Positions 2,782 through 41,426 of a stretch of 42,796 nucleotides of DNA are shown piece by piece. Source of the DNA: an uncultured Treponema sp. (lineage in GTDB: Bacteria; Spirochaetota; Spirochaetia; Treponematales; Treponemataceae); NCBI GenBank assembly GCA_937902445.1, contig CALELJ010000039.1, forward strand, positions 1-42,796, in the 5' to 3' direction. Below the pieces are notes generated by a model that saw only the letters and a program-made list of their open reading frames with translations, was not told the DNA's origin and did not search any database. The first letter of the stretch is position 1; every line of letters begins with the position of its first letter. Position numbers and translations under genes: made by a program.

Positions 2782-4044
2782 TTATTCGCTCCACTTTTTG
2801 AAAATCAGCGAAGTATTTACTCCGCCAAAGGCAAAATTATTTGACATTACGTATTCAGCGTCAATTTTTCTGCCCTCATCCTTTATGTAGTCCAATGGCG
2901 CACACTCAGGATCAACTGATTCAAGGTTTAGGTTTGGATGGAACCACCCCTCGTTCATCATGTTTATTGTAAGCCAGGCTTCGATGGCACCGCATGCACC
3001 AAGGGTATGGCCTATGTAGCTTTTTGTCGTACTCACCGGGACAGCCCTGTTGAACACCTTGAAAACCGCCTTGCTTTCGGAAATGTCTCCGTGGGAAGTT
3101 GCAGTTCCGTGGGCATTGATGTAGGCGATTTTTTCAGCCGGAACTCCAGCATCATCGAGGGCAAGCTGAAGGGCAACTGCCTGGGTTTCGCTGTTTGGAC
3201 TTGTAATGTGGGTTCCGTCCATGTTTGTTCCAAAGCCGGCGACTTCCCCATAAATCTTTGCACCACGCTTTACGGCATGTTCCAGATCCTCAAGGATCAG
3301 GGTACCTGCACCTTCGCCGATTACAAGGCCATCGCGGTTTTTGTCCCATGCCCTTGGCGTTGAGAAGGGAGCGTCATTTTTTACGCTTGCCGCACCCATG
3401 ACGTCAAATATGGCGCTGTCTGCCGCAGAAAGTTCATCGGCACCGCCTGCTATCATAATGTCGGCGCGGCCGTCTTCTATGGCCTCATATGAATATCCTA
3501 TGGCCTGGCTGCCTGAAGTGCATGACGTGTCGGTCACGATGACACGGCCGCGGATTGAATAGTAGATGCTCAGGTTTGCGGCGCAGGTCTGCGGCATACA
3601 CTTTATGTAGGTCTGGGAATCTACCTTGCTGAAGTCTCCCCTTTCGACAATGCCGATCATGTCTGAAAGAGCCTGCATGGATCCCATACAGCAGCCGTAG
3701 GCGATACCGGTACGGCCGTTCTGGATTTCAGGACATGGATTCCCCTCGTCGTCAACAAGACCAGCCATGCGAAGGGCATCATCAGTCGCAACAAGCGACA
3801 GCAATGCCACACGTCCCATTCCGCGGATTTTTTTTCTTGGGAATTTAGGAAGTTCTTCCCTGTAGGGACAGGCAAGTCTGGTGTTCATCCTGTCATACTT
3901 GTCCCATTCAGTCATATATTCAATGAGGTTTTTCTTTTCCTTCAATCTTGAGCAGGCGTCTTCCCATGTGCGTCCGAGGGCAGAAAGCATTCCGGCCCCT
4001 GTGACAACGACGCGCCTTTTTCCGTTTGGCTTAGTGAATGTCAT
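2782..4044 (-). CDS. Beta-ketoacyl-ACP synthase, ApeR-like
   Basis: RRVVVTG start, catalytic Cys in TSCTSGSQAIG, HGTAT and KSYIGHTLGACG His motifs, SNNFAFGGVN end; YIKxMPQTxAAN segment typical of ApeR. Confidence 0.92.
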   Translation of the reverse strand: MTFTKPNGKRRVVVTGAGMLSALGRTWEDACSRLKEKKNLIEYMTEWDKYDRMNTRLACPYREELPKFPRKKIRGMGRVALLSLVATDDALRMAGLVDDEGNPCPEIQNGRTGIAYGCCMGSMQALSDMIGIVERGDFSKVDSQTYIKCMPQTCAANLSIYYSIRGRVIVTDTSCTSGSQAIGYSYEAIEDGRADIMIAGGADELSAADSAIFDVMGAASVKNDAPFSTPRAWDKNRDGLVIGEGAGTLILEDLEHAVKRGAKIYGEVAGFGTNMDGTHITSPNSETQAVALQLALDDAGVPAEKIAYINAHGTATSHGDISESKAVFKVFNRAVPVSTTKSYIGHTLGACGAIEAWLTINMMNEGWFHPNLNLESVDPECAPLDYIKDEGRKIDAEYVMSNNFAFGGVNTSLIFKKWSE

Positions 4045-4047
4045 CGA

Positions 4048-4776
4048 TTATGCCAGGCCTCCATTTACAGAAATGACCTGCCTTGTTATGTACCCAGCCT
4101 CTTCCGAAAGCAGGAAAACAGCAAGGGAACTTACTTCAGATGGTTTTCCGGCACGTCTCATAGGTATGGTCTCCATGATCATGTCCATGGGAGCGTCCTT
4201 TATCATGTCAGTTTCAATCAATCCCGGCGCAATGCAGTTTACCGTTATTGAACGGCTTGCAAGTTCCGCGGCAAGGGCTTTGGTGGCTCCAATAATTCCG
4301 GCTTTTGACGCGCTGTAGTTTGTCTGCCCGCGGTTTCCAATGATTCCGCTTACTGATGCAATCGTGATGATTCGGCCTTTCTTTTTTCTGGCTAATGGCA
4401 TGACAAGGGGATTAAGTACATTGTAAAAACTGTCCAGGTTCGTGTGGACAACGCTGTCCCATTCCTCTCCGCTGAGGCCTGCGAAAGTATTGTCCTTTGC
4501 AATCCCGGCATTGTTTATGATTCCCCAGAGAGCTCCGTGCTTTTCCGTCATGGCATCGAGTTTTGTCCTGCAGTCCTCACGGTCTGTAATGTCAAACTGA
4601 ATGAGTTCTCCATTTCCACCTGCAGCCTTGATTTCTTCCATGAGGCTTTCGGCTTTTTCCTGTCCGCGATTGTAATGACAGATGACGTAATAGCCTGCCT
4701 TTGCGCAATCCAGGGCAATGGCGCGGCCGATTCCGCCTGAAGCACCGGTAACTAATATTTTCTTGTCTTCATTCAT
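4048..4776 (-). CDS. fabG: 3-oxoacyl-ACP reductase, ApeQ-like SDR
   Basis: TGASGGIG, NNAG, GNRGQTNYSASKAG (YxxxK), YITRQVISVNGG. Confidence 0.93.
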   Translation of the reverse strand: MNEDKKILVTGASGGIGRAIALDCAKAGYYVICHYNRGQEKAESLMEEIKAAGGNGELIQFDITDREDCRTKLDAMTEKHGALWGIINNAGIAKDNTFAGLSGEEWDSVVHTNLDSFYNVLNPLVMPLARKKKGRIITIASVSGIIGNRGQTNYSASKAGIIGATKALAAELASRSITVNCIAPGLIETDMIKDAPMDMIMETIPMRRAGKPSEVSSLAVFLLSEEAGYITRQVISVNGGLA

Positions 4777-4780
4777 ACAA

Positions 4781-5287
4781 TCACACTCCCAGAATCTTTT
4801 CCATGTTTTCAGTCTGCATTACCGTTATGGTCGCCTCAACCACACTTTCCATGCTTTCAGGTCCTGCATATGCCATGCACCTGTAACGGTATATTCCGCT
4901 TTCAGGATCCCGATATTCTTCCTGCGCCGTGGCCTTCACCGTCGTTCCGTTTTCAAACCAGGACTGCCCGCACTTAAATCCGGTGACACTGAGTATGCAT
5001 CCGGCCTTTGGCTTGATTCCCAGCTGGTGGTCATGGATTCCTGTCAGAGCAGAAATGGCCTGGGCCATGATCTCAAAGCTGCACCACGACGGAACCCCAT
5101 CGGCTTCTTTTTCATAAAAAATAAAATTCTCGTTGATGTCGGTTTCCACGGTGATGGTCAGATTTTCAATATCATGACGGGTAACCCTGGAAAGAAGGAA
5201 CATTTTTCCTTTATGGGGAATCAAATCTACAAGAAGGTCTTTTTCTATGCGCTGTTCCATATGTTTCAACCACCGATAATCAGACAT
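4781..5287 (-). CDS. Hotdog-fold 3-hydroxyacyl-ACP dehydratase subunit, ApeP-like
   Basis: LIPHKGKMFLL and EIMAQ motifs; located between the KS and KR genes. Confidence 0.85.
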   Translation of the reverse strand: MSDYRWLKHMEQRIEKDLLVDLIPHKGKMFLLSRVTRHDIENLTITVETDINENFIFYEKEADGVPSWCSFEIMAQAISALTGIHDHQLGIKPKAGCILSVTGFKCGQSWFENGTTVKATAQEEYRDPESGIYRYRCMAYAGPESMESVVEATITVMQTENMEKILGV

Positions 5288-6459
5288 GCGTTTGAGCCGC
5301 CGAAAGCAAAGGAATTGCTCATGCAGATTTTTACTTTTCCAGAAGTTTTTCTGTGGGCTGCATCATAGAAATTCAGCTGCGGAATTTCCGGATCCTTCTG
5401 ACCGTCCCACATCTGGACTGGCAATATTACATCTTTGGAATTTCTGTTCTTCACAATGGCCTCATGGCATATGGCAAGTTCAATTGCACTGCCGGCTCCA
5501 AGGGTATGCCCCGTGAAAGGTTTTGTCGTGCTCACCGGAACCTTGTGGTCTCCAAAAACCGCATCGACAGCCCTGCTTTCCATGGAATCGTTGAGTTTTG
5601 TTCCTGTTCCGTGGAGATTGATGTAGTCGATGTCCTGACTCTTAAGCCCGGCATGGCTCAATGCACTTTCCATGGCACGCCTTGCTCCATCCCCGCTTGG
5701 ATCTGGAGAAGTCATATGATGCGCATCGCAGCTTTCACCGTAACCAAGAAGCCGGACGCCTGTTCCACACGGATCATCCCTTGTCATGAGAAAGAAAGCG
5801 GCTCCTTCGCCAAGGGTAATTCCATGACGGTTGATGCTGAAGGGATTTGTGATTTCCGAAGATACCGCCTCAAGAGAACCAAAGCCAAGCAAAACGGTAT
5901 CGGAAGCAATATCTACGCCACCGGCAACGACTGCATCTGCAAGTCCGCTGTTCAAAAGCTGCGCACCTTTTATCAAGGCTTCAGCACTGGATGAACAGGC
6001 TGTACTAAAAGAAAGGCATGGACCGCCAAGAGAAAATTTTTCCTTTATGAATGTGGCAGGATAATCGGCCCCCTGCATTTCAATTGAATAGTTTCCGTCA
6101 AATTTCTGATTTTCAAAATAGACTCTGTGGCCCGCAAGGGAAAATTCGGTTCCGTTGTCGCAGGAACCTGCACAGACTGCGACACGGTCCGCGCCATATT
6201 TTTTTCTGGCATCATCGATTTCACAGGCAATCTGATCCAATGCCATTTCCTGAATACGATGTATCCTCATGTCGTAACGTGCCGACGTAGGTTTTATTTT
6301 ATCGTCATCGATTCTTCCGGCGTAAAATTCATCTCCTGAAACTGCGGTAACTTTTCGGATGCCATCCTGAGTTCCGGCTGTAACTGAATTCCAAAGCTGT
6401 GATGAATCAAGACCGGCACAACAGACAACACCCGGTTTTGAAAGATAGATACTATTCAT
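5266..6459 (-). CDS. Beta-ketoacyl-ACP synthase, ApeO-like
   Basis: STACSSSA catalytic Cys, HGTGTKLNDSME, KPFTGHTLGA, SNSFAFGGSN, PFSINRHGITLGEGAA. Confidence 0.92.
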   Translation of the reverse strand: MNSIYLSKPGVVCCAGLDSSQLWNSVTAGTQDGIRKVTAVSGDEFYAGRIDDDKIKPTSARYDMRIHRIQEMALDQIACEIDDARKKYGADRVAVCAGSCDNGTEFSLAGHRVYFENQKFDGNYSIEMQGADYPATFIKEKFSLGGPCLSFSTACSSSAEALIKGAQLLNSGLADAVVAGGVDIASDTVLLGFGSLEAVSSEITNPFSINRHGITLGEGAAFFLMTRDDPCGTGVRLLGYGESCDAHHMTSPDPSGDGARRAMESALSHAGLKSQDIDYINLHGTGTKLNDSMESRAVDAVFGDHKVPVSTTKPFTGHTLGAGSAIELAICHEAIVKNRNSKDVILPVQMWDGQKDPEIPQLNFYDAAHRKTSGKVKICMSNSFAFGGSNACLIIGG

Positions 6460-7048
6460 CCAAAACTCCCGTCAGGTGATATTCGTAACCGCGTAGATGA
6501 TTTTTTATGACTGTTGAAGTTCCGTCTAGATGGATCTCTTCGATGACATTCTTGCCGTCAAGAATTTTTCGGATTTCTACGGCGCCGTCATTTTCAACGA
6601 CAAAATCGAGCTTGTATTTCGCAAGCCTCTCTTTCAGGGACTGGAAATCATAGAAAGCAAGCTGTATGTCCCAGACGATGTATTCCGCCTTCATGTTCTG
6701 GGGAAACACCGCTGAATTGAATTCCACATCACCGTTGCTGTAGGAAAGCTCGCCCATGCTTGTTCCCACGTCATTGAGAATCGAAACGTACATGCCTTTT
6801 TCATCGGCATTGATATAAAGCGGGAATGAAAAACTCTGAGCGCCAAAGGTACCTTCAAAAAGCTGAACCTCGTCCATGGGTCTTGAAATGTTTTCCGCAG
6901 TGAGAATGTTTACTTTTTTCGTGTTGGTCACATAGACTGCAGGAGTCACGGGACCTTCGACTTTGCTTGTGGCACAAGAAATGAAAAGCGCAGAAACCAT
7001 TGCCATTATGGGAAAGATCTTTGCGCACTTTCCGTTGAATCTAACCAT
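6452..7048 (-). CDS. Lipoprotein, ApeN/DUF3261-like
   Basis: Signal peptide with lipobox (LFISC), AEYIVWDIQL motif and NHLRGYEY C-terminus; positioned between MMPL and KS as apeN is. Confidence 0.75.
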   Translation of the reverse strand: MVRFNGKCAKIFPIMAMVSALFISCATSKVEGPVTPAVYVTNTKKVNILTAENISRPMDEVQLFEGTFGAQSFSFPLYINADEKGMYVSILNDVGTSMGELSYSNGDVEFNSAVFPQNMKAEYIVWDIQLAFYDFQSLKERLAKYKLDFVVENDGAVEIRKILDGKNVIEEIHLDGTSTVIKNHLRGYEYHLTGVLDE

Positions 7049-7054
7049 GGTTCA

Positions 7055-7083
7055 AGTTTAAATTTAATGGTTGCTTTTGTCAA
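7055..7083 (-). promoter_or_regulatory. Internal sigma70-type promoter for apeN-R, leaderless
   Basis: Minus strand TTGACA (7083-7078), 17 nt, TAAACT (7060-7055), 6 nt, ATG (7048). Confidence 0.75.
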
Positions 7084-7107
7084 ATTACGCAGGAAAGTGT
7101 AACGCCG

Positions 7108-9462
7108 TCAATCTCTTTCATAAAAGAAGGAACTGTAGTACGCGGTGGCAAGGCCTACAAGAATGGCAAGTCCCATCAGATGCACCGGAGTGAAGGAACT
7201 GAGGGAGATGGCTCCAAATGAAATTGATGTCGTAAAGAAGGACAGCAGAATCGCATAGGGTTCAAGCCTTTTGTTTTCCGTGGTGTCATTTCTTTTCTGG
7301 GCCTCGACCATATAGATGACGTAATCAAGGCCAAGTCCAAAGACAAGGATGATTCCCGTGATCGAGAAAAATTCCAGATGGATTCGGGCAATGGCAAACA
7401 CTGAACTTACAAGAAGAATTATCAGCAGCGGAATGGAAATAATCTTAAGAGACTGTTTCATCCTGTAGAACATCCTGAGAACAATAAAAATAAGAATGTA
7501 GGCAACGGCAAAGAATTTTAAAATCATGACCGTGAGAACATCCATGTCATGGCTTATGTCCGCCATCTTGTTCACATAGAAAACATCATCGCCATAATTT
7601 GAGGCAAAGTTCTTTCCGTCAAGCCCCTCGGGAATGAAAGAAGGCATCACAACGGAATACCAGCTTCCGTCGATTTCACCAAGCCACGAGTTGGCACATG
7701 CGCTCTGGATGAATTCAGGGAAATCTTCCATAGAAGTATATGCATTTTTCTTTTCTTCCCATTCGGAACTGATCCGGGACGCCATTGAGGAATCTTCTCC
7801 GATGTACTCAAGCTGAGCTTCCATAAAAGGCAGGAGACCTTCGTAAATTCTCTTTGACCTGTCCTGCTGCTTTTTCGACGGAAGGAAATCAGAAGTACAG
7901 AAAAGGGAAATTCCATCAATCTGGTTTCTAAGATCCATTACAACATCATGCTCAAGTTCAATCAGTTCATCAGCAGTTCTACCGCGCAGGATGAACCACC
8001 CGCGGGGCGCATAGTTGAGGACCTTTGCGCTTTCAATCTGGTCTTCAAGGACACGGCCTTCCATTTTGTAAAGGCGCGAAAGATCATTTTCAATACGGCA
8101 GTATTCGTATCCCCGGAAAAGACAGATGAAGGCAAAGACAAACATGGCGGTAACGGCGAAACGGCCGGCGATCTTGCGGTTGTACCACTTTGGTATCTTC
8201 ACGAATCTCATTCCACGTACACGGCGCTTTTTGTGTTCCGGAACTGGAACAAGAGGATAGATGCAGACCACCGAAAGGAAGGAACTGAAAATACCCGAGA
8301 GGGAGAAGACCGACATCTGCTTCAAAAGTTCAAAAGGAGCAAAGATAAGGATGGCAAAACAGATTTCCGTCGAAACAAGGGAAAGTGCGAGACCTGAAAA
8401 GAGATAGGATCTTATTTCCGAACCTGTCTTCAATGAGGTATTGGCTTTCCAGTTGATGAAAAAATGAAGGCTGTAGTCGATGCAAGAGCCAATCAGTGAA
8501 GTTCCGAAGATGAGGGTAAGGACATGAATCCTGTGGAACACTGAAATCGTAAGCAGAAATGCGGTGAGAACCGAAACTCCGATGGAACCGAGGGAAAGGA
8601 AAATCGGTATTGGAGTTCTGAAAACAAGGAGAAGCATGACAAGAACTGCGGCAAGGGACACTGTGGAAATAATGGTGATTTCCCTTGTAGCGGCATTGGA
8701 ACTTTTGTGGCTGTGGAAAGTAGTTCCTGAGTAGACAAAGCGCTGATCGCCATTCTCATACTTCGAGCACACTGAATATATTTCCGAGATGCCATTTTTT
8801 TTGCTTGCCAGCGCCGAACCTTCCTTGCTGAGAAGTCCGCGCACCATGACATACCAGAGACCGTTGTATTCCCTGGCAAGGACATTGTCCCTGAGACCAA
8901 GGGAAGTTCCGTTGGATGAGAGAGATTCAAGATAATTTTCCATTTCAACTTCAGTCAGAAGGAAAGGATCTCTGTCCATGTATGAAAGGCTTGAGTAAGT
9001 GAACGGACTGTAAAGCTTTTCAAGGGCCGTCTGCGACATCTGTGACGGATCACTGTATTTTTCATCGATGAAATTGAACCTGTTGTCAAAAAGGAAAGAC
9101 TCAAACTGGCCAATGACTTCCGTATCCTGATAGAGGGTCAGCGACTTGAAGTTGGAACTGTCTTTAAGCTCTTCGTAGACCTTGCCGGCGATTTCCTTTG
9201 CGGTGTCAAAATCCCTGTTGCAGGAAAGAATGAACACATTGCGGCTTGTAACTTCTGAAAGCTTCCTGTCGGCTTTTTCGACAGACTCTCCTGAAAACTG
9301 CTTTGGAAGCATGTTGAACAGATCGGCATCTATCTTGAGGGAGTCCTTTGAAAACAGAAAGGAAGCAAGGAAAACCGAGGCGATTACAAAATGAAAGGCA
9401 AGCCATAGGCCCAGGAATTTCCTGTCGGAAAACCTATTTGTTATTGAAGCAGGATTTTTCAT
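7108..9462 (-). CDS. MMPL/RND-family exporter, ApeM-like
   Basis: Two periplasmic loops with two TM bundles; motifs FGTSLIGSCIDYSLH and GLGLDYVIY. Start placed at MKNPAS (9462) rather than the ORF-track 9522. Confidence 0.88.
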   Translation of the reverse strand: MKNPASITNRFSDRKFLGLWLAFHFVIASVFLASFLFSKDSLKIDADLFNMLPKQFSGESVEKADRKLSEVTSRNVFILSCNRDFDTAKEIAGKVYEELKDSSNFKSLTLYQDTEVIGQFESFLFDNRFNFIDEKYSDPSQMSQTALEKLYSPFTYSSLSYMDRDPFLLTEVEMENYLESLSSNGTSLGLRDNVLAREYNGLWYVMVRGLLSKEGSALASKKNGISEIYSVCSKYENGDQRFVYSGTTFHSHKSSNAATREITIISTVSLAAVLVMLLLVFRTPIPIFLSLGSIGVSVLTAFLLTISVFHRIHVLTLIFGTSLIGSCIDYSLHFFINWKANTSLKTGSEIRSYLFSGLALSLVSTEICFAILIFAPFELLKQMSVFSLSGIFSSFLSVVCIYPLVPVPEHKKRRVRGMRFVKIPKWYNRKIAGRFAVTAMFVFAFICLFRGYEYCRIENDLSRLYKMEGRVLEDQIESAKVLNYAPRGWFILRGRTADELIELEHDVVMDLRNQIDGISLFCTSDFLPSKKQQDRSKRIYEGLLPFMEAQLEYIGEDSSMASRISSEWEEKKNAYTSMEDFPEFIQSACANSWLGEIDGSWYSVVMPSFIPEGLDGKNFASNYGDDVFYVNKMADISHDMDVLTVMILKFFAVAYILIFIVLRMFYRMKQSLKIISIPLLIILLVSSVFAIARIHLEFFSITGIILVFGLGLDYVIYMVEAQKRNDTTENKRLEPYAILLSFFTTSISFGAISLSSFTPVHLMGLAILVGLATAYYSSFFYERD

Positions 9463-10060
9463 CTTCCGAAAGTTCCTTTGGATGTGAGTGGTTTGTGAAT
9501 CCATAGAAAACGGAACCACCATTGGCTTCGTTTAAGACAATGTCTGTGATCTCCGAATTTCCCGATCCGCTTTTTCCCTTCAATACAATGCTGCTCATTA
9601 CCGAAGCGACAGTCTTGTCCTTTGGTTCAAGGGAAACTGTCCATGTATCTGCGCCGGATGACTCAAATGTCAAAGTGAAATTCTGACTAAGCTTTGATAC
9701 ATCGTTTGAGAAAAGGGCAAGCAAAGTGGATGACACGCTTTTGAAGGCATCGTTTCCCCGGGCGTCAGTGACCTTTCTTTTTCCGTCCGAGCCAATCTGA
9801 ACCATGTAGTCTGCACCAAGGACCAGAGTCGAAGGGAAAGGCTTCAAGGTATTCCAGAGAATTCCTTCCGTGCTGAAAATAAATTTTCCATTGGAGCTGA
9901 GTTTCTTGCCCGTCTTTGCGATTGTCTTTGACTGAAGAAAATCACCTTTTGTGATCCTGTTTTTTGAAAGGTCGGAACAAATCGACTCAAGAGAAATGTT
10001 CTGCGAAAATGCGAGGGCACCGCAAAAAACAAGCGCCGCCATAAAAATATGTTTTTTCAT
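9434..10060 (-). CDS. LolA-like periplasmic carrier, ApeL-like
   Basis: Signal peptide; GDFLQSKTI...LSSNGKFIFSTEGILWNTLKPFPS and WTVSLEPKD pattern of LolA-fold APE proteins. Confidence 0.85.
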   Translation of the reverse strand: MKKHIFMAALVFCGALAFSQNISLESICSDLSKNRITKGDFLQSKTIAKTGKKLSSNGKFIFSTEGILWNTLKPFPSTLVLGADYMVQIGSDGKRKVTDARGNDAFKSVSSTLLALFSNDVSKLSQNFTLTFESSGADTWTVSLEPKDKTVASVMSSIVLKGKSGSGNSEITDIVLNEANGGSVFYGFTNHSHPKELSEDEKSCFNNK

Positions 10061-10091
10061 GCAATAAATCCTTTGTATTAATTCTGTCAGT

Positions 10092-10520
10092 TTATTTCTT
10101 TAACGCCATTGCTTCCTTCATTTTTTCAATGAAAGTTTCAGGACAGACATACATTGTCTCTCCCGTAGCGACCTTCACCACCATCTGTGTGGATTCCGCC
10201 TTCGTCACAAGATCACCATTTGAGTTGTAGATTTCGTATTTTATCTTGAGGCAGTTTTCATATTCAGTGACGGAAGATCTTATTTTTGCCACCTCGTTGA
10301 ATTTGAGGGATTTCAGATAGCGTACCTTTATGTCGACCACAGGGAATGCATAGCCTTCGTTTTTCATCGACAGGTAATTGTATCCAATCTCATCAAGAAG
10401 GGCACAACGGCCTACTTCCATGAAACGTATATAGTTTCCGTGGTAGGCAATGTCCATTGAATCGACATCATAGAATTCAACCTTAAAATCCTTTTCGACC
10501 GTATAAAACTCTTTGTCCAT
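10092..10520 (-). CDS. Acyl-CoA thioesterase (4HBT/YbgC family), ApeK-like
   Basis: VEFYDVDSMDIAYHGNYIRFMEVGRCALL motif. Confidence 0.9.
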   Translation of the reverse strand: MDKEFYTVEKDFKVEFYDVDSMDIAYHGNYIRFMEVGRCALLDEIGYNYLSMKNEGYAFPVVDIKVRYLKSLKFNEVAKIRSSVTEYENCLKIKYEIYNSNGDLVTKAESTQMVVKVATGETMYVCPETFIEKMKEAMALKK

Positions 10521-10522
10521 TC

Positions 10523-11479
10523 TTATTCCTCGCTCCAGAAATCAAAGAAATTGTACCACTGGTTCGGGAACCACATACAGTACTTTTCAAGAACCATCAC
10601 ATAGTTTTCACAAAGACGGTTTATTCTTGCATTCCTTTCATTACGCCTGCAGTCATTGAAATCAATGTCAGACCTGTGCATATAGACCGCGTTGATCGGC
10701 CTCAGCATTACAGGTTCGTCCCTGAGTCCAAAACAGAAATAGGTCGGACAATTAAGAAGGGCGGCAATAAGGAAAACTCCATAAGGAAAGTTCGCCTCCT
10801 TGCCAAGAAATTTTGTCCTGATGAACCTGTTGCTTGAATGGGCGGAAATTCTGTCGCCGGTTATGACGACGATTTCTCCGTTCTGGATTTTTTCCTGAAG
10901 CTGGATTATGGTTTCCGGAGTTATGTCTGTGGGATCTATGGCAGTCATTTCATAATCTTCATTTACACTCTTCATCACATTGTTGAATTTTTCAGAAGAC
11001 TTTATTTCCATTATCACCGTCACGGGAATCACATGGTCCACACCTGCGCGGCTGAAAGTAGAAAGGCTTCTTAGAAGATCCATGTTGCCAAGATGTGAAG
11101 TGATCAGAAGACAGCCCTGGCCTTTATCAAGGTTTTCCCAATAGTCATCAATATCATCGTCATTATAGAAAACATCTTCCGCCTCAATTTTTCCGATCCA
11201 TCCTGCGATGCGTTCAACAAGGCAGAGACTGAAGGAGAAGATCGTCCTGTAGATTGAAATTTTATGGGGAACATGACCACCGGTGAAAGTCCTCATCTGA
11301 TTCTGGAATCTTCTGATTTCCCTGCGGGCACGGGCTGAAAATAAATAGTAGAAAAATGCGACCGGAAATATTATTGCGCACACAACTGGAAGCGGAAGAA
11401 CTTTGACCAGCCATAACGTGAAGAGAATCGGAGCACTTGTGTGGACCTGTTCCTTTTCCTTGTACCACTGTCTATTCAT
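10523..11479 (-). CDS. LpxL/LpxP-family acyltransferase (C-terminal half of ApeJ)
   Basis: SHLGNMD, GDR, FLGKEANFPYG and PNQWYNFFDFW motifs. Confidence 0.85.
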   Translation of the reverse strand: MNRQWYKEKEQVHTSAPILFTLWLVKVLPLPVVCAIIFPVAFFYYLFSARARREIRRFQNQMRTFTGGHVPHKISIYRTIFSFSLCLVERIAGWIGKIEAEDVFYNDDDIDDYWENLDKGQGCLLITSHLGNMDLLRSLSTFSRAGVDHVIPVTVIMEIKSSEKFNNVMKSVNEDYEMTAIDPTDITPETIIQLQEKIQNGEIVVITGDRISAHSSNRFIRTKFLGKEANFPYGVFLIAALLNCPTYFCFGLRDEPVMLRPINAVYMHRSDIDFNDCRRNERNARINRLCENYVMVLEKYCMWFPNQWYNFFDFWSEE

Positions 11480-12230
11480 TTTTTTTCAAACCTCTTTTAA
11501 CTGCCCTGAAAACCAGAACCGGCGAACGGAACATCATGCCTATGCACAGCCTTGTATAGGCAAGTGAAATGTGGATGTTGTCGCGCACCAGGCGGAAATT
11601 TGACACACCGTCCTTAGGGTAGCTGATTTTCACCGGACTTTGAACCACAGGAATATTCTTCCACATCATGTGGGCAAGGATATCCAGATCATAGCCCATG
11701 TGGCTGTCTATGACCGCATGATTTTTCAGCAATTTATAGTAGGGAGCCACTGGATACACACGGAACCCTATGAGGCAGTCCCTGATCTCATTTGAAATGG
11801 TGACGATATGGATCCAGGTGTTGGCGATTTTTCTTGCCTTGAGACGCGCAGGCGGAACCGTTCCGTCGTATTCAGGATAGCCGCAGATTATGCTTCCGGG
11901 ATTTTTCTCTGAAAGCTCAAGGAAATGTTCCACCTGGGACACATCATGCTGGCCGTCGGAATCTATCTGAAGGACGTGGGTGATTCCAAGTTCATGGGCC
12001 TTTCTCACACCGTCATTGACAGCCCTGCCCTTGCCTCCGTTTTTTTCCCGCCAGATGACCACAACACTGGAATACTTTGACTCAACCCCGCGTATGAATT
12101 TCTTGTCCTCTTCTCCATTTCCGTCATCAACGACAATGATGGGACAGTTGAATTTTTGCAATGAGGAAACAACATAATCCAAAGTCGATCCGTGCCTGTA
12201 CACCGGAACAATAAAAGCAAATCTATTCAT
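11472..12230 (-). CDS. GT2 glycosyltransferase (N-terminal half of ApeJ)
   Basis: IVPVY, VVDDG, NGGKG, QIDSDGQH, GFRVYP, GVSNFRLVRDNIHIS. Confidence 0.9.
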   Translation of the reverse strand: MNRFAFIVPVYRHGSTLDYVVSSLQKFNCPIIVVDDGNGEEDKKFIRGVESKYSSVVVIWREKNGGKGRAVNDGVRKAHELGITHVLQIDSDGQHDVSQVEHFLELSEKNPGSIICGYPEYDGTVPPARLKARKIANTWIHIVTISNEIRDCLIGFRVYPVAPYYKLLKNHAVIDSHMGYDLDILAHMMWKNIPVVQSPVKISYPKDGVSNFRLVRDNIHISLAYTRLCIGMMFRSPVLVFRAVKRGLKKNE

Positions 12231-12592
12231 CAGTTTTTTCCCGCAACAAATGCCCCGGAAGAGAAAACCTTCGATTCATCAACGGCAGACCAGAGCCTGA
12301 ATGCCACAGTTGATTTTTCCGGATCATATTCAAGTTTCATCCTTACCTTTGCGCCAGGTAGAATCGGTGCTGAAAACTTCATTCTTTTGATTGAGGATAC
12401 TCCCCTGGCAACTCCGAAATATCTGCAGGCAAAACGGGAAATGACCTCAAACTGTCCCACCGCAGGCAGCAGCTTGAACTGTGGGAAATGTCCGTCAAAA
12501 AAATCACTTGATTCCGGAACAAGAAATTCCAGAAGCACGGACGAGTCATCTTTCTCAATCAGGATTTCATTTTCAATGGAGTGGCTGTTCAT
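12230..12592 (-). CDS. Hotdog dehydratase, ApeI-like (FabZ/FabA fold)
   Basis: FFDGHFPQFKLLPAVGQ and MKFSAPILPG motifs. Confidence 0.88.
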   Translation of the reverse strand: MNSHSIENEILIEKDDSSVLLEFLVPESSDFFDGHFPQFKLLPAVGQFEVISRFACRYFGVARGVSSIKRMKFSAPILPGAKVRMKLEYDPEKSTVAFRLWSAVDESKVFSSGAFVAGKN

Positions 12593-12597
12593 CGGCT

Positions 12598-14628
12598 TTA
12601 AGATTCCTGTGAATTCTCAAACATGGCGGCGATTTCAGCCTTGTGCTTCTTGCCCTGTACATCAACAGGAAGTTCATCCACAAAGCGCCATTTCTTTGGG
12701 AGGACTACATTCTCAAAGAACTTCATGAGCCAGTCATGGAAATACCTGTTGATGAGATATTTTTCCGTACCTTCAAATTTTTTCTTACCTTCTGCGTTCA
12801 ACACAACGGCGGCGGCAAGATACTGGCGCACATCATTGGAAAGGGCAATGACCTTTACGTCCGCCACAAGTCCGCTTTCAATAAGGCGGTTCTCAACTTC
12901 CGTCATGGAAATGCGCTTTTCCTCAATTTTTACGATGGAATCGCTTCGTCCCTTCAGAAGGAATTTCTGATCCTCTCCGGTAAATTCAACAAGGTCGGCT
13001 GTTGCAAATCCCTCGGGATCCTTGATGTACGGAGAGATGATTCTGAGGCATCCGTCATCGCCCTTCCATACCTTTGCGTTGTCAAAAGGAGTCCAGACCA
13101 GCTTGTCCTTTTTCTGCTGGCGGTAAGCGATTCCGCTTGTCTCCGTTGAACCGTAGACTTCAAGAGGACAGAATCCAAAAACTTTTTCCGTGCTTACGGC
13201 AAGCTCGGGACTTACGGCACCACCGCTTGTGAAAATCCAGGTGTCATCAAGGGGAAGCTTTTCCTTGGATTCAACGGTGCGCTTGAGGAAAGCAGGAGTT
13301 GCGATGATGATGTATCTGCCGTCATCAAGCTTTTCAAAATCCTCAGGAAACTCAATTCTTGTCCTGCGGAATGGAACTCCCAATGTAAACGGAAGGCAGA
13401 TGCCAAAAAGGAAACCGTAGATATGATGCTGGCTTACTGTCGTAACAAGATGGCGGCTGCAGAATTCCTGCCCCCATTTTGAGATGATGAAGGCGTTGTC
13501 TTCCTCAAACTCCTTCATGCGCTGAGGAACAGCTTTTGGAGTTCCTGTAGAGCCTGACGTGTACATGTAGATGTTTGAATCCTCGCAATTGATTCCAGGC
13601 GCGGTGCGGATCTCGGATTCTGATGGTGATGCGGAGCCTTCGATTATTTCTGGAATAAAGCCGGAACCAGCGATGACCGCGCCGTCCTTCTTCTGGTCAG
13701 TGAGGAATTCAGTTCCGGCTGTCTTGATTTCTGCGATGAAAGACTCAGCTATGTTCTGTGTCAGGTAAACCGTCTTTCCGCTCTGGAGAAGGGCAACAAA
13801 AGAAACAAGGAAATACCAGTAGTCCTCGCAATGAAGAATCCAGTTCCGGGAATTTCTGGATGCAAGGAATTTCCTCATCTTTGCCGTATCCACAAGAAAA
13901 TCCTTCCAGGTCTTATAAGTTCCGGCTGAATACCTTTCCTCATAGCAAAGGATATGGTCATCCTTTCTTGAGTCCGCCTTGAATTTTGAAATCGGATATG
14001 TCTTAATCATTTTTCCATCAACCTTCTTTCTAATGAAAAATTCAACGGTAAAAAGAATCCCCATCAAAACATAGGAGATTCCACCGTTGTATATGGACCA
14101 CACCCTGTCACTTGCAAAGAACGCGGTGTAGACTGAAACGGTTCCGTTGAAAATAAAAAAACCGCACCAGACCAGAGTTACTTTTAGGCAATATTTTTCA
14201 ACGCTGCCTTCCCATGAACTTCCCTTTATGGACCTATCCATGAGGGTTGCGAATCTGAAAATCATGTTGGGCGGCGAAAAAAGAGTACTGCCAAACACCA
14301 CCAGGAAAGTCAGACTTATTACGACCGAGTAAAGTTTAAGGAAAACAACTTTCTGCGTAATAAAACAAAAAAGACCGGCGGCAAGAAAAAGCGCAGAAGA
14401 AACAAGCGGACGCCAGTTCATCACTTTCTTTTTTTCACCTTCACCGGTTTTTGAATTTCCGTCTGCCCTGCCACGAGCCGTTGCGCTCAAAAAAAAGGCA
14501 GAAGCAAGGACGATTATGCACAGGGACAAAATCCTGACCGGAAGCTTGAACACCACAAGAAATGCAAACACCAGCACAGGATATATGGCGGCCAATGCAT
14601 AGAACAAAATCTTGAGCAGTCCGGACAA
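12598..14628 (-). CDS. Fusion of an ApeG-like membrane protein (COG4648-type) with an ApeH-like AMP-binding acyl-ACP/CoA ligase
   Basis: N-terminal ~200 aa hydrophobic with YCLKVTLVWCGFFIFNG and WSIYNGGISY. C-terminal part has YTSGSTGTPK, QHHIYG, EVYGSTETSGIA, GRSDSIVKIEEKRIS and LPVDVQGK. TTG start preceded by AGGAAGAG. Confidence 0.9.
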   Translation of the reverse strand: MSGLLKILFYALAAIYPVLVFAFLVVFKLPVRILSLCIIVLASAFFLSATARGRADGNSKTGEGEKKKVMNWRPLVSSALFLAAGLFCFITQKVVFLKLYSVVISLTFLVVFGSTLFSPPNMIFRFATLMDRSIKGSSWEGSVEKYCLKVTLVWCGFFIFNGTVSVYTAFFASDRVWSIYNGGISYVLMGILFTVEFFIRKKVDGKMIKTYPISKFKADSRKDDHILCYEERYSAGTYKTWKDFLVDTAKMRKFLASRNSRNWILHCEDYWYFLVSFVALLQSGKTVYLTQNIAESFIAEIKTAGTEFLTDQKKDGAVIAGSGFIPEIIEGSASPSESEIRTAPGINCEDSNIYMYTSGSTGTPKAVPQRMKEFEEDNAFIISKWGQEFCSRHLVTTVSQHHIYGFLFGICLPFTLGVPFRRTRIEFPEDFEKLDDGRYIIIATPAFLKRTVESKEKLPLDDTWIFTSGGAVSPELAVSTEKVFGFCPLEVYGSTETSGIAYRQQKKDKLVWTPFDNAKVWKGDDGCLRIISPYIKDPEGFATADLVEFTGEDQKFLLKGRSDSIVKIEEKRISMTEVENRLIESGLVADVKVIALSNDVRQYLAAAVVLNAEGKKKFEGTEKYLINRYFHDWLMKFFENVVLPKKWRFVDELPVDVQGKKHKAEIAAMFENSQES

Positions 14629-14637
14629 ATTCTCTTC

Positions 14638-14889
14638 CTATGCCCAGACAGCTGCCAATGCGTCAACCACATCCTGAACGGTCTTTACTTCCTTGAAAAT
14701 GGAAGCATCGATGGCAGGTTTTCCTTCAGGTGTGTATTCCTTCATTTTAACAACAAGATCAATCGCATCGATTGAATCCAGGTCCAGATCATCTCCAAGA
14801 AGGGCTTCAGGAGTAACCTGGGATTCCTCAAGCTCAAAAACAGAAACAAGTATTTCTCTGAGCTTCACAAAAATTTCATCTTTTGTCAT
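14638..14889 (-). CDS. Acyl carrier protein, ApeF-like
   Basis: Acidic 83-aa protein with DLDLDSIDAIDL phosphopantetheine site. Confidence 0.92.
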   Translation of the reverse strand: MTKDEIFVKLREILVSVFELEESQVTPEALLGDDLDLDSIDAIDLVVKMKEYTPEGKPAIDASIFKEVKTVQDVVDALAAVWA

Positions 14890-14898
14890 AGCTGACCC

Positions 14899-15165
14899 CT
14901 AGTTTGCCTTTGCGCGTTCCGCAACGATGTACTGTGCAAGTGAGTCTACTGAAGCAAAAATCTTCTTTGTATCCTCGCCTTCTGTTGCAAATTTAATGCC
15001 GAATTTCTTTTTGAGTGCGACCCCAAGTTCAAGGGCATCAATTGAATCCAAACCGAGTCCTTCGTTGAACAAAGGAGCATCGTCCACAATATTTTCCGGC
15101 TTGATGTCTTCAAGCTGGAGAGACGAAATTATTGTTTCCTTTATTTCCTGTTTCAATGCGTCCAT
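14899..15165 (-). CDS. Acyl carrier protein, ApeE-like
   Basis: APLFNEGLGLDSIDALELG motif; RBS AGGGGA upstream. Confidence 0.92.
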   Translation of the reverse strand: MDALKQEIKETIISSLQLEDIKPENIVDDAPLFNEGLGLDSIDALELGVALKKKFGIKFATEGEDTKKIFASVDSLAQYIVAERAKAN

Positions 15166-15197
15166 AAAAAGTCCCCTAAAAACAAATACTTATATTA

Positions 15198-15226
15198 ATT
15201 ATATTGTAGAAATCCCGCTGATTCAA
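15198..15226 (-). promoter_or_regulatory. Sigma70-type promoter of the apeE-R operon
   Basis: Minus strand TTGAAT (15226-15221), 17 nt, TATAAT (15203-15198). Confidence 0.7.
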
Positions 15227-15266
15227 CACGGCGGAATTTTTGTATAGTTAAAGTTCCACAGCCATG

Positions 15267-15295
15267 TTGAAAAAACAACTTTTTTTCTTTAAAGT
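15267..15295 (+). promoter_or_regulatory. Sigma70-type promoter of the divergent apeBCD operon
   Basis: TTGAAA (15267-15272), 17 nt, TAAAGT (15290-15295); GAGGA RBS before ATG 15317. Confidence 0.65.
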
Positions 15296-15316
15296 TTCTT
15301 CTATAAATGAGGAACT

Positions 15317-16432
15317 ATGGACAAATCTAAATATTCTTTCGACAAATACAAGGACGACAGTCTTCGTGCCATCGATGCACGTTTTGAGGCGCAGAAAATA
15401 GCTTTTGCTCCAATGACTTTCCAGGCTGTCAGGGCAATGATCGAGCTGGGTCTGCTGGGCCTCATTGAGGATGCCGGAGAAGACGGAATCACCATCGCCG
15501 ACCTTGCCAGAAAAACAAACCTTACGGAATATGGTGCAGGCGTTCTTTGCGAGATGGCTCTTGGAATGAACGTTGTCCGCCTTTCAAAAAATTCCACATG
15601 CCAGAAAGATGAACATTATGTTTTAGGGAAAACAGGCTGGTTCCTGCTGAACGACACACTCACAAAGGTAAATTTCAATTTCACCAACGACATATGCTAC
15701 AAGGGTGCCTTCAAGCTAAAGGAATCTGTGGTGAACGGCAAACCTGAAGGACTCAAGGAATTTTCCGACAAGTGGACGGTAATCTACGAAGGCCTTTCAC
15801 AGCTGGATGAACGATCAAAGAAATCCTGGTTTGAATTTGACCACTTCTATTCCGACATAGCATTTCCTGTGGCTCTTCCCGTGGTCTTTGGAAACAAGGC
15901 TCCTTCCACTCTTGTAGACATTGGAGGCAACACGGCAAAATGGTCCATCGCATGCTGCAGATACAATCCTGACGTAAAGGTAACGATCGTTGACCTTCCG
16001 GGACAGACTGCGGTGGCGGAAAAAAATGCGGCGGCGGCAGGTTTTGCAGACCGCATCTCCACCTGCAGCGGAAACGTCCTTGATGAGACGACAAGACTTC
16101 CTTCAGGTGCCGACGCCTACTGGATGAGCCAGTTCCTGGACTGCTTCAGCCTAAAGCAGGTTACGAAGATCGCAAAGAAAATCTACGAAGCCGCGGGAGA
16201 CAACAGCACGGTCTATGTACTTGAGCCTTTATGGGACAAGCAGCAGTTTGAAGGAAATGCATATTCCGTCATGGCGACATCACTTTATTTTACATGCATG
16301 GCAAACGGCAACAGCAAGATGTACCGCTTTGAGGAACTCCGTGACGCAATCGAAGCTTCAGGGTTCCGGCTGAAGGATGCCCACCACAACCTTGGAAGCA
16401 ACGCATATTCCCTTCTGGAATTCGGTAAATGA
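15317..16432 (+). CDS. SAM-dependent methyltransferase (Methyltransf_2 fold), ApeB-like
   Basis: EAQKIAFAP N-terminus, SWFEFDHFYSD, VDIGGNT SAM motif, WMSQFLDCFS, SLYFTCMANGNSKMY. Confidence 0.9.
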   Translation: MDKSKYSFDKYKDDSLRAIDARFEAQKIAFAPMTFQAVRAMIELGLLGLIEDAGEDGITIADLARKTNLTEYGAGVLCEMALGMNVVRLSKNSTCQKDEHYVLGKTGWFLLNDTLTKVNFNFTNDICYKGAFKLKESVVNGKPEGLKEFSDKWTVIYEGLSQLDERSKKSWFEFDHFYSDIAFPVALPVVFGNKAPSTLVDIGGNTAKWSIACCRYNPDVKVTIVDLPGQTAVAEKNAAAAGFADRISTCSGNVLDETTRLPSGADAYWMSQFLDCFSLKQVTKIAKKIYEAAGDNSTVYVLEPLWDKQQFEGNAYSVMATSLYFTCMANGNSKMYRFEELRDAIEASGFRLKDAHHNLGSNAYSLLEFGK

Positions 16433-17067
16433 AATTCTACGTCAGCAACACAAAAGCATGGGCTCCGGGAATTGAAAACGGACTCGATGCAATACAGAAC
16501 GAAAAGGTCTCTCCAAAAATCGAATTCACGGATCCGTTGTTCCGCAGAAGGTTCAGCCAGATAACAAAAATGACTGTTCAGGTTGTACACGACGTGATTG
16601 AGGAAGTTCCAGAGGCAAAGGACTGCAAGATCGTTTTTGTTTCGTTCCGCGGTGAGATCGAGAGGGAATTTGCCATCGATAAAATGGTGATCGAAGACAA
16701 GATGATTTTGCCCGCAGCATTTTCACTTTCCGTATTCAACACACCGATAGCAGCCGCAACCATAGCCCTGGGCCTTAAGGGCGGATACAGCTGCATCTAT
16801 CCTTCACAGGGAAATTTCCGAGACGCACTTGTTTCAGCAGCATCAAGCGTTTTAAGCGGAGACGAGAAGAAAATTCTTTTTGTCTATGGGGATGAAAAAA
16901 TTCCTGCGGAGTACGAGGACACCCTTAAAAACTACAATGTTCCGGGGCCACATGTTCCCCTTTCATTCGCATGCATTCTTTCGGCTGAAAAAACAGAAGG
17001 CGCAAGGGAATTTTCCATGGACTGTCTGGATGCAGTTCCGCTGGATTTCCTGAAAAAGGCACTATAG
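16429..17067 (+). CDS. Ketosynthase chain-length factor, ApeC-like (Ketoacyl-synt_2)
   Basis: RRRFSQITKM, VFVSFRGE, PAAFSLSVFN, YGDE; ATGA overlap with the methyltransferase. Confidence 0.85.
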   Translation: MKFYVSNTKAWAPGIENGLDAIQNEKVSPKIEFTDPLFRRRFSQITKMTVQVVHDVIEEVPEAKDCKIVFVSFRGEIEREFAIDKMVIEDKMILPAAFSLSVFNTPIAAATIALGLKGGYSCIYPSQGNFRDALVSAASSVLSGDEKKILFVYGDEKIPAEYEDTLKNYNVPGPHVPLSFACILSAEKTEGAREFSMDCLDAVPLDFLKKAL

Positions 17068-17079
17068 GAAACGTAACCG

Positions 17080-17940
17080 ATGGAACAAAAAGAAATGGAT
17101 GACAAATACAGCTGGAATGATCTCCCAAGGCCGACAAATCCCGTTCTCCACGCCTACAGATGTTTCATGAAACTTTTCTGGATTTTTGTCATAGGAGCCG
17201 GGTCCCTGGTTCTGGCATTTCTTGTATTTCCCCTGCTCAAAATATTCATCCACCCAAAAGACAGGTTCAAGATTGCAGCCCAAAGGTTCGTTTCGGCCAC
17301 ATTCAGATTCTTCATGTCCATGCTCAAGGCATCCCGAATCTCCTACATGACAACGGATGCGGAAGACCAGCTGAAAAACCTGCGTTCCAAGGTTGTCATC
17401 GCAAACCATCCTTCGATGCTTGATACAGTTGTTCTCGTTGCCCTCATTCCAAACACAACGGTGATTGCCGGTGAAAAATATTCCCGTGGAGTTTTCGGCG
17501 GAGTGATAAAGGCCTGCTACATAATTAACTCACTTGACTTTGACGAACTTTGCAGAAGATGCAGGGAAAGCCTGGATCTTGGAAGCAACGTGCTGATTTT
17601 TCCGGAAGGAACAAGAACTCCACGGCACGGACATAATTCATTCAAGAAGGGAGCTGCCAGAATCGCAAGGGCAGCTGGTGTAAACATTCTGCCGGTCTAT
17701 ATTGCTGGAAGCGACAAATTCGGACTTGGGAAAAACAACCCCTTCTGGAGTTTCAATCCGGTGGAACAGCTGATATACCATGTAATCCCGCTTGAGGAAA
17801 TCGACACCAGCGAATACTCGGAACTTACGGATCCAATTGCAGCCAAAAGAATCACCCGGAAATGCCGCGACCAGCTATGTGACGCCGCCGAGGCATACAA
17901 AAAAGACCATCCCCTTACGAAGACGGTCAATAATTTTTGA
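17080..17940 (+). CDS. PlsC-family lysophospholipid acyltransferase, ApeD-like
   Basis: IANHPSMLD (HxxxxD), IFPEGTRT, FKKGAA; N-terminal TM segment. Confidence 0.9.
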   Translation: MEQKEMDDKYSWNDLPRPTNPVLHAYRCFMKLFWIFVIGAGSLVLAFLVFPLLKIFIHPKDRFKIAAQRFVSATFRFFMSMLKASRISYMTTDAEDQLKNLRSKVVIANHPSMLDTVVLVALIPNTTVIAGEKYSRGVFGGVIKACYIINSLDFDELCRRCRESLDLGSNVLIFPEGTRTPRHGHNSFKKGAARIARAAGVNILPVYIAGSDKFGLGKNNPFWSFNPVEQLIYHVIPLEEIDTSEYSELTDPIAAKRITRKCRDQLCDAAEAYKKDHPLTKTVNNF

Positions 17941-40092: not shown

Positions 40093-40120
40093 AATGCCGG
40101 CGTCATTGCCGGCATTTTTT
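40093..40120. terminator. Intrinsic terminator between convergent genes
   Basis: Perfect 9-bp stem AATGCCGGC-GTCATT-GCCGGCATT followed by a T-run. Confidence 0.85.
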
Positions 40121-41309: not shown

Positions 41310-41426
41310 GTTTATGCCTTTTCGCAATTCCCTGAGTTTCAAAACTTCATCCTGTTTACTTTTTCTACCATTATATTGCATAAAATCACAAAATCAACGA
41401 AAATCTTTGTTCCCGGCGGTAATAAT

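Follow-up and report, generated by a model that had tools for sequence, protein, structure and literature searches.

A probable aryl polyene lipid cluster of the Escherichia coli/Xenorhabdus ape type in a gut Treponema genome, its ApeG-ApeH fusion and its distribution in the genus

Here we report the analysis of a gene cluster of the aryl polyene lipid (APEL) type at positions 2782-17940 of a 42,796-base contig (C39, CALELJ010000039.1) from an uncultured Treponema sp.; this whole contig is called the window below. The host genome assembly (GCA_937902445.1) amounts to 2.41 Mb in 315 contigs and is 86.7% complete. The region holds 17 intact genes in two divergent blocks, 14 on the minus strand and 3 on the plus strand, and its limits are the stop codons of the ApeR-like and ApeD-like genes, respectively. 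Direct comparison established the gene set, its order, the orthology of its members, their intact catalytic residues, the host and the distribution of the cluster. From these sequence comparisons, we consider it very probable that a gut Treponema harbours here, as a resident locus, a complete and apparently working APEL cluster of the E. coli/Xenorhabdus ape type. The features are as follows (KS, ketosynthase; ACP, acyl carrier protein; SDR, short-chain dehydrogenase/reductase; GT2, family 2 glycosyltransferase; aa, amino acids; ORF, open reading frame).

2782..4044, minus strand: ApeR-type beta-ketoacyl-ACP synthase, 420 aa (NF006587/PRK09116, 588 bits, cut-off 470)
4048..4776, minus strand: ApeQ-type ketoreductase (SDR, FabG2), 242 aa (TIGR01831 fabG_rel, 350.5 bits, cut-off 338.85)
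4781..5287, minus strand: ApeP-type hotdog dehydratase, 168 aa (PF22817 ApeP-like, 40 bits, cut-off 27)
5266..6459, minus strand: ApeO-type ketosynthase, 397 aa, the expected partner of the chain length factor (NF006618/PRK09185, 398.4 bits)
6452..7048, minus strand: ApeN-type DUF3261 lipoprotein, 198 aa (PF11659, 52 bits)
7108..9522, minus strand: ApeM-type MMPL/RND exporter, 804 aa as listed (PF03176 MMPL; weak HpnN/HAE3 matches)
9434..10060, minus strand: ApeL-type LolA-like carrier, 208 aa (PF03548 LolA)
10092..10520, minus strand: ApeK-type 4HBT thioesterase, 142 aa (PF13279/PF03061)
10523..11479, minus strand: acyltransferase half of ApeJ, LpxL-like, 318 aa (PF03279 Lip_A_acyltrans)
11472..12230, minus strand: glycosyltransferase half of ApeJ, GT2, 252 aa (PF00535)
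12230..12592, minus strand: ApeI-type hotdog dehydratase, 120 aa (PF22818 ApeI-like, 39 bits, cut-off 28.5)
12598..14628, minus strand: ApeG-ApeH fusion, 676 aa, TTG start (N-terminal six-helix membrane domain followed by an acyl-ACP synthetase/adenylating enzyme with AMP-binding and AMP-binding_C)
14638..14889, minus strand: ApeF-type ACP, 83 aa (NF003757/PRK05350, 86.7 bits, cut-off 65)
14899..15165, minus strand: ApeE-type ACP, 88 aa (NF006617/PRK09184, 98.4 bits, cut-off 70)
15166..15316, no strand: divergent intergenic region between apeE and apeB, with promoter-like sites facing each way
15317..16432, plus strand: ApeB-type O-methyltransferase, 371 aa (PF00891 and dimerisation domains)
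16429..17067, plus strand: ApeC-type chain length factor, 212 aa, without a KS active site (PF13723 Ketoacyl-synt_2, 99.8 bits)
17080..17940, plus strand: ApeD-type lysophospholipid acyltransferase (PlsC-type), 286 aa (PF01553, 60 bits)

Every part is an open reading frame with a family match in Pfam and NCBIfam scans, in keeping with a preliminary description of this DNA that had listed the ACPs, ligase, hotdog dehydratases, ketosynthases, chain length factor, ketoreductase and remaining parts. The annotated ape cluster of E. coli IBS28 (locus L086) was used as reference, all of its proteins being compared by blastp; its genes follow the order given in the CFT073 gene table (PMC8253772). The 16 E. 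coli proteins ApeC to ApeR were matched one to one in the window, ApeE to ApeR in collinear order, with identities from 21% (ApeM) to 56% (ApeQ); ApeB lacks a pairwise comparison because the IBS28 methyltransferase copy is frameshifted. All nine genes of the core set that defines an ape cluster according to Grammbitter et al. (apeO, apeR, apeE, apeF, apeC, apeI, apeP, apeQ, and apeM; bioRxiv 10.1101/2020.12.19.423268) are present and intact. The lipid attachment and export genes (D, J, K, L, M, and N) are present as well, in the E. coli order and with blastp E-values of 1e-11 to 4e-61. Taken together with the gene table in PMC8253772, the blastp results bear out the earlier reading of the locus as an ape-type type II polyketide synthase (PKS) and lipid cluster with an E-to-R order like that of E. 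coli. The curated NCBIfam cut-offs are passed by ApeR, ApeQ, ApeE, and ApeF, and E. coli ApeR, ApeO, and ApeQ match the same three models as their window counterparts.

The ApeR-like KS is 51% identical to E. coli ApeR, which itself scores 778 bits on NF006587. For the ApeO-like KS, NF006618 outscores all other models by a wide margin (E. coli ApeO reaches 555 bits on it), identity to E. coli ApeO is 36%, and the best solved relative is 6qsp_A (E 5e-65). Aligned to the catalytic residues of E. coli FabF (C163/H303/H340/K335), both full ketosynthases keep the Cys-His-His-Lys set, at C175/H312/H346/K341 in the ApeR-like and C155/H283/H318/K313 in the ApeO-like protein, as the preliminary description had stated for the Cys-His-His residues. 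The sole solved relative of the ApeC-like chain length factor is 6qsp_B (E 4.6e-7), co-crystallised with 6qsp_A in what we take to be the Xenorhabdus ApeO:ApeC complex, and the factor is 24% identical (E 6e-9) to the E. coli product annotated as 'chain length factor'. A maximum-likelihood KS tree of 44 rows (quick search, with support only from the Shimodaira-Hasegawa-like approximate likelihood ratio test, SH-aLRT) was built from the two KSs of the window, four E. coli references, and KS ORFs aligned over >=300 residues from 22 chosen loci, its outside points being E. coli and UBP6-labelled genomes only. In this tree, the window ApeR shares a clade with its E. coli counterpart (SH-aLRT 100), as does the window ApeO with that of E. 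coli (SH-aLRT 98), and the FabF encoded on contig C96 of the host genome branches with FabF of E. coli. The two ketosynthases thus do not group with FabF/FabB, the outcome named beforehand as fatal to their assignment, and the ape-type reading therefore stands.

The ApeQ-like ketoreductase is 56% identical to E. coli ApeQ (475 bits on TIGR01831) and keeps the catalytic S and YxxxK; the two ACPs, both PP-binding domain proteins in Pfam, are 54% (ApeE) and 45% (ApeF) identical to their E. coli counterparts, and each keeps the serine of its DSID motif, the phosphopantetheine site. Of the two dehydratases, the ApeI-like one (29% identity) keeps the GHF histidine, and the ApeP-like one shows 24% identity to E. 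coli ApeP at E 2e-8. The ApeK-like thioesterase, 38% identical to E. coli ApeK, matches TIGR00051 YbgC/FadM with 75 bits (cut-off 68.7), and the ApeD-like acyltransferase is 32% identical to E. coli ApeD (E 2e-23). Within the export group, the ApeN-like protein (25% identity) carries a lipobox-like LFISC close to its N-terminus, the ApeL-like carrier (27%, E 1e-22) has a hydrophobic leader at its N-terminus, and the ApeM-like exporter is 21% identical to E. coli ApeM across 730 aa (E 2e-29). The true ApeM start probably lies about 20 codons downstream of the listed one, since relatives align only from residue 19-47 and, as listed, the ORF shares 89 bases with apeL. The ApeB-like methyltransferase reaches 439 bits on an FlxJ-family model with a cut-off of 560.

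The window thus shares with the E. coli CFT073 (APE_Ec) and Xenorhabdus doucetiae ape clusters all of apeB-apeR, the E-to-R order, the lipid-attachment (D, J, K) and export (L, M, N) genes, and a KS/chain length factor pair related to 6qsp, but differs from the E. coli cluster in four respects: ApeG and ApeH form one fused protein, a pair of genes takes the place of apeJ, apeBCD is divergent, and ApeA is missing. The split ApeJ consists of separate GT2 and LpxL-like acyltransferase genes, the former 37% identical to residues 10-244 of the 558-aa E. coli ApeJ (E 4e-61) and the latter 28% identical to residues 264-550 (E 1e-39). In the window, apeB-C-D diverge from apeE; G081, a genome of the same genus, has the E. 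coli arrangement, with these genes upstream on the same strand. The hosts differ too, that of the window having no UbiC and belonging to a genus without LpxC. Resemblance also extends to the flexirubin clusters of Bacteroidota: the window methyltransferase fits FlxJ best, its ketoreductase also matches FlxB, and its carrier also matches LolA2_flexi. However, all of these Flx models score under their cut-offs (FlxJ 439/560, FlxB 279/340, LolA2_flexi 58/125 bits), and no extra FabH-like or dialkylresorcinol-type gene was found among the scanned window ORFs.

The fusion is conserved. Its residues 89-200 correspond to E. coli ApeG (36% identity, E 1e-18) and residues 247-673 to E. coli ApeH (28%, E 2e-54); for the ApeH domain, the top NCBIfam hit, 4-coumarate-CoA ligase, scores 90.6 bits, far below the cut-off of 334.7. 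Among 80 loci with ApeR relatives, 25 match the fusion, and the frame across the junction is open in all 12 that reach it, the remaining 13 ending before the junction. ApeG and ApeH likewise form a single frame in 6/6 further genomes of the genus, in 4/4 cultured strains, and in G343, a genome from another family of the same class. In addition, 635 database proteins of the fused length match the N-terminal part, the named ones being from Treponema, and contigs from two other public runs cross the gene without gaps. An AlphaFold model of fusion residues 1-235 has six long helices at a mean predicted local distance difference test (pLDDT) score of 70. A Foldseek search of the ApeG-domain model against the PDB gave no match at E <= 0.001. 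The best VIA-align results (best Z 8.5; BAR domains, VTC, and TMEM120A at Z 7.7-8.5, root-mean-square deviation up to 9) fall below the level that is meaningful for helical bundles and were rejected. No function is readable from the fold search with the modeled ApeG domain.

The pathway proposed here is transferred by homology from work on Xenorhabdus and E. coli, in which the protein roles and the APEL structure were described (bioRxiv 10.1101/2020.12.19.423268; PMC8253772), and on this basis we infer all the reactions, the compound made, where it resides, and what it does. The ApeG-ApeH fusion would, by means of its adenylating domain, load an aromatic acid onto ApeE, and the ApeO:ApeC heterodimer (with ApeR), ApeQ, and ApeI/ApeP would extend this starter with malonyl units from the host FabD; with no enoyl reduction, a conjugated polyene would form, the ring of which is predicted to be methylated by ApeB. 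A second conjugated acyl chain would be built on ApeF and set on a lysophospholipid by ApeD. The GT2 half of the split ApeJ pair would add an amino sugar, to which the LpxL-like half would then esterify the aryl polyene, and ApeM, ApeL, and the lipoprotein ApeN would move the lipid to the outer membrane. There it may act as a radical-quenching pigment in a diderm without lipid A. For an ape-type cluster, the product is expected to be a membrane-bound chromophore with absorbance near 430-440 nm.

The host genome appears equipped for this. It encodes FabF on contig C96 and fabD-fabG-fabF on C237/C274, as well as a carboxyltransferase and an AcpS-type phosphopantetheinyl transferase. Judged by these genes, the host does not share the fatty-acid auxotrophy of T. 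pallidum, and the earlier remark on a lineage often dependent on external fatty acids does not hold for it. The FabD, carboxyltransferase, and AcpS set would provide the cluster with malonyl-ACP and holo-ACPs, neither function being encoded in the cluster itself. The remark on a lineage without classical lipopolysaccharide (LPS) is supported, LpxC being found in 0/41 genomes of the genus, 24 of them of high quality.

Several observations weigh against a complete and functional APEL cluster as proposed above. The ApeO-like KS scores 398.4 bits against an NF006618 cut-off of 407 and so lies 9 bits under it. A search for ApeA homologues found none, either in the window or elsewhere in the genome (lowest tblastn E 0.11); an E. 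coli apeA deletion retains near wild-type pigmentation (PMC8253772), and ApeA is for this reason not a core feature. A scan for promoters and terminators gave counts no higher than in shuffled sequences, with 17 promoter-like sites against 18.6 expected, so that the two sites between apeE and apeB (minus strand, 15226-15198, 10/12 matches; plus strand, 15267-15295, 9/12) are only suggestive as promoters. The search for RNA runs listed none that contains 2782-12592. The N-acetylgalactosamine (GalNAc)-phosphoglycerol anchor is known only from Xenorhabdus, and the Treponema GT2 half is 37% identical to ApeJ. A further difficulty concerns the aryl starter, which in E. coli is 4-hydroxybenzoate made by UbiC (PMC8253772). 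A UbiC-type lyase was found in 0/1 own genome and 0/5 high-quality cluster-bearing relatives, the Rv2949c/XanB2-type lyase gave no match above the cut-off in the same 0/1 and 0/5 genomes, and no aromatic ammonia-lyase is present in this 86.7%-complete genome. No source of the aryl starter was found here by a search that covered the UbiC, XanB2, and ammonia-lyase types; chorismate synthase is present in the host genome.

One alternative keeps the same machinery and changes the starter, which would be 4-coumarate or another hydroxycinnamate, as in flexirubin, obtained from a tyrosine ammonia-lyase (TAL)-like source in most relatives and, in this lyase-less lineage, from plant phenolic acids scavenged in the gut. 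We rate its likelihood only a little short of even. Besides the zero counts for UbiC and Rv2949c-type lyases in the own genome (0/1) and the relatives (0/5), it is favored by the distribution of an aromatic ammonia-lyase across 101 sampled species genomes from the genus of the host, 52 of them of high quality. The lyase occurs in 43/101 of these genomes (e.g., G081:C5:50174-51634 and G027:C13:104860-106320): in 42 of the 64 that are ApeO-positive, 22 giving no match, and in one of the 37 that are ApeO-negative (a 61%-complete genome), 36 giving no match. Thus, 42/43 lyase carriers are ApeO-positive, with a Fisher p of 5e-11 that is overstated, as related genomes are not independent, and for the same reason the co-occurrence is a strong lead and not proof. 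In four genomes (G062, G063, G046, and G089), a distance of 0.4-5.5 kb separates the lyase gene from that of ApeR. Among NCBIfam models, the tyrosine ammonia-lyase BagA/FevW fits the lyase slightly better than HutH does (434 versus 410-421 bits, all under the cut-offs); it also matches the flexirubin FlxA model in relatives of the window genome (357/700 bits), and neither of the two genomes inspected (G081 and G027) has hut genes next to it. These data suggest that priming from tyrosine via 4-coumarate, like that of flexirubin producers, is shared by many genomes of the genus. The 4-coumarate-CoA ligase match of the ApeH domain (90.6 bits) points in the same direction.

A further argument comes from an alpha/beta hydrolase of the BD-FAE family (feruloyl/acetyl-xylan esterase) at 20674-21564 on the plus strand, 2.7 kb beyond apeD. 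A homologue adjoins apeD in G002 (L100), and others lie <10 kb from ApeR, together with apeB-D, in L060 and L063. This esterase may be linked to phenolic-acid supply, or its position may be a coincidence, and uptake of plant-derived phenolic acids would be a reasonable alternative source of the starter. On the other side, the association was seen in only 6/11 places with apeD in view (the window, L096, L097, L100, L060, and L063, the first three being one lineage), and the 4-coumarate-CoA ligase match is far under its cut-off. The lyase is also missing from 22/64 ApeO-positive genomes, including the window genome, G043 (98% complete), and G077 (98%, 4 contigs), the window lineage being mostly devoid of it (none in G000, G043, G037, G049, and G059; one in G066). 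Moreover, kinship inflates the Fisher p of 5e-11, and the tyrosine specificity of the lyase is putative.

The fusion opens a more speculative extension of the same idea. The E. coli and Xenorhabdus papers proposed that ApeG energises export (bioRxiv 10.1101/2020.12.19.423268; PMC8253772). The genus-wide joining of ApeG to ApeH would argue instead for ApeG acting with the loading enzyme rather than in export. ApeG (a COG4648 membrane protein) might then work at initiation, perhaps anchoring or feeding ApeH at the membrane, e.g., by coupling phenolic-acid uptake to adenylation and loading, and in lineages that, like this one, have no starter-making enzyme the aromatic head would come from plant-derived hydroxycinnamates or hydroxybenzoates, perhaps freed by the BD-FAE esterase. 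We consider this unlikely as a whole; if true, it would be the first functional assignment for ApeG and would make the pigment a diet-dependent trait of LPS-free gut spirochaetes.

Slightly more doubtful is a product devoid of an aryl head, i.e., a purely non-aromatic conjugated polyene lipid, corresponding to the C26:5 conjugated fatty acyl chain in APELs, or some other uncommon membrane lipid. It would account for the failure to find a starter-supplying enzyme in the genome, and APELs do hold a second, non-aryl conjugated chain, which the same enzymes are thought to assemble on ApeF (bioRxiv 10.1101/2020.12.19.423268). However, ApeB and the ApeH domain are intact and kept at 67-93% and 61-83% identity, respectively, in relatives, a degree of conservation not expected of a pathway that does without aromatic acids. 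Furthermore, the genome is only 86.7% complete, and phenolic acids are plentiful in herbivore guts.

Finally, a mis-binned contig or a very recent transfer, of non-spirochaete origin, is hardly credible: two close loci are labelled 'Bacteroidaceae bacterium' (L022) and 'uncultured Prevotella sp.' (L079), and UBP6-labelled ApeR copies nest among Treponema copies, but the genes are carried by isolate genomes of T. socranskii, T. bryantii, and Treponema sp. Marseille-Q4130 and by closed or near-closed genus genomes (G077, 4 contigs; G338, 1 contig), the flanks are housekeeping genes common to G043 and G066 at 70-88% identity, and the GC (guanine-cytosine) content is even.

The two other public runs, one of which may be the same sample from which the window was assembled, provide contigs that cover 3683-15183 and 5298-16149 without gaps. 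The GC content of the cluster resembles that of its flanks and is even along the window, in which no mobility genes or tRNAs were found, confirming the flank-like composition and absence of mobility genes noted before. The housekeeping flanks comprise def, fmt, hisD, and an M18 peptidase gene. G043 and G066 share gene order and flanks with the window, and intact clusters are found in G081, G002, and G046; G077 showed neither apeB nor apeK, and G001, G095, and G027 have fragmented clusters.

The nearest ApeR relatives, from 95% down to 66% identity, belong to records almost entirely titled Treponema or Spirochaetia/Spirochaetales, from horse, ruminant, and human gut material, which upholds the host proposed from the letters alone. 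They include T. bryantii, two subspecies of T. socranskii, and Treponema sp. Marseille-Q4130, and the isolates carrying the genes are T. socranskii ATCC 35535 (on a 2.0-Mb scaffold) and ATCC 35536, T. bryantii XBD1002, and Treponema sp. Marseille-Q4130. In the genus sample, an ApeO orthologue was found in 64/101 genomes and in 31/52 high-quality ones, and an ApeR-type KS above the model cut-off in 60/101. NF006587 (ApeR) was rejected as the proxy for the cluster as it overcounts, and ApeO was counted too; the ApeR count overstates the cluster because T. bryantii has a detached ApeR copy. This copy in T. bryantii XBD1002 (L048, 10001-11269) is a lone ApeR-type KS, 72% identical, amid GGDEF, chemoreceptor (MCP), DUF1846, and OPT genes, and the fused G-H and chain length factor genes of the strain are on a different contig; T. 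socranskii ATCC 35535 and ATCC 35536 have fused G-H and chain length factor genes as well. Detached ApeR copies also occur in G027, G007, G042, G055, and G090.

At a larger scale, 33 genomes in a phylum sample of 401, from 18/152 genera, have an ApeR match at E <= 1e-130. Within the family of the host, an ApeR-type KS is present in 9/24 own-genus versus 0/26 other-genus genomes. The full cluster, including the fusion, is found in G343. The other spirochaete classes have NF006587 matches 40-48% identical to the window ApeR, in other cluster kinds or alone, and these were not counted as the same system. In the KS tree, they fall outside the clade of E. coli and Treponema ApeR, so that E. coli ApeR is closer to Treponema ApeR than they are. 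Because of this tree and the 9/24 versus 0/26 distribution, the cluster looks old and common within the genus but laterally acquired by the genus or its ancestor, and not ancestral to the phylum. The description of the cluster as long resident thus holds within the genus; beyond it, distribution and KS tree point to lateral acquisition.

Three loci titled UBP6 or 'bacterium' (L070, L071, and L074) carry ApeR (68% identical), and one ApeO, that nest in Treponema clades, which reflects either gene exchange between rumen lineages or labelling and binning issues. Two loci from other classes, L092 (G243) and L090 (G282), have different PKS- or fatty acid synthase-like clusters around a PRK09116-like KS. 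The one at L092 contains an FlxJ-like methyltransferase, an AMP ligase, an LpxL-like acyltransferase, a GT2, a lysophospholipid acyltransferase, and a thioesterase, with no ApeO, P, Q, N, or M nearby, and may represent another aryl-polyene-like subtype.

Aryl-polyene clusters of Treponema have been recorded before, so that the novelty implied by the preliminary description does not hold. Genome mining reported them in Treponema_D sp900541945 (PMC8863827; PMC10904984, Table 2) and in oral Treponema (PMC8549736), and PMC9964075 contains a statistical association only. These earlier records concern the same genus and the same cluster class as the window; their texts, supplements aside, give the cluster-type label only, with no gene-by-gene comparison, distribution figures, or chemistry. 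No spirochaete aryl-polyene product is described in the literature searched, supplements, which may hold cluster lists, being outside its scope; on this point the preliminary description agrees. As a discovery, the cluster is therefore ordinary, its class and its presence in Treponema being already on record, and what interest it holds is secondary, lying in the conserved fusion, in the co-occurrence of the lyase, in the starter source that is missing from this lineage, and in a host without LPS.

Protection of the outer membrane against oxidative damage and an influence on biofilm formation are the roles ascribed to aryl-polyene lipids. In the present case, the full pathway is encoded in strictly host-associated spirochaetes without lipid A, in about 6/10 species of a large gut, rumen, and oral genus. 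Cultured T. bryantii and T. socranskii make tractable the questions of the lipid's role in an LPS-free outer membrane, the starter source in an anaerobe, and the role of ApeG.

Of the other genes in the window, the ORF immediately downstream of apeR (2427-2777, minus strand) encodes a predicted coiled-coil protein of 116 aa; it has no family match, is kept (53-90%) only in the closest relatives L006-L012, and was rejected as a cluster member. A DUF1538 membrane protein followed by a P-II-like protein (27011-29157, plus strand) forms a conserved pair without an assigned function. An HD-GYP-type (HD_5) response regulator stands beside a hybrid histidine kinase at 23632-26952 on the plus strand, and a second HD_5 protein is encoded near the window end (40119-41381, minus strand); these genes probably belong to cyclic-di-GMP signalling and show no evident tie to the cluster.

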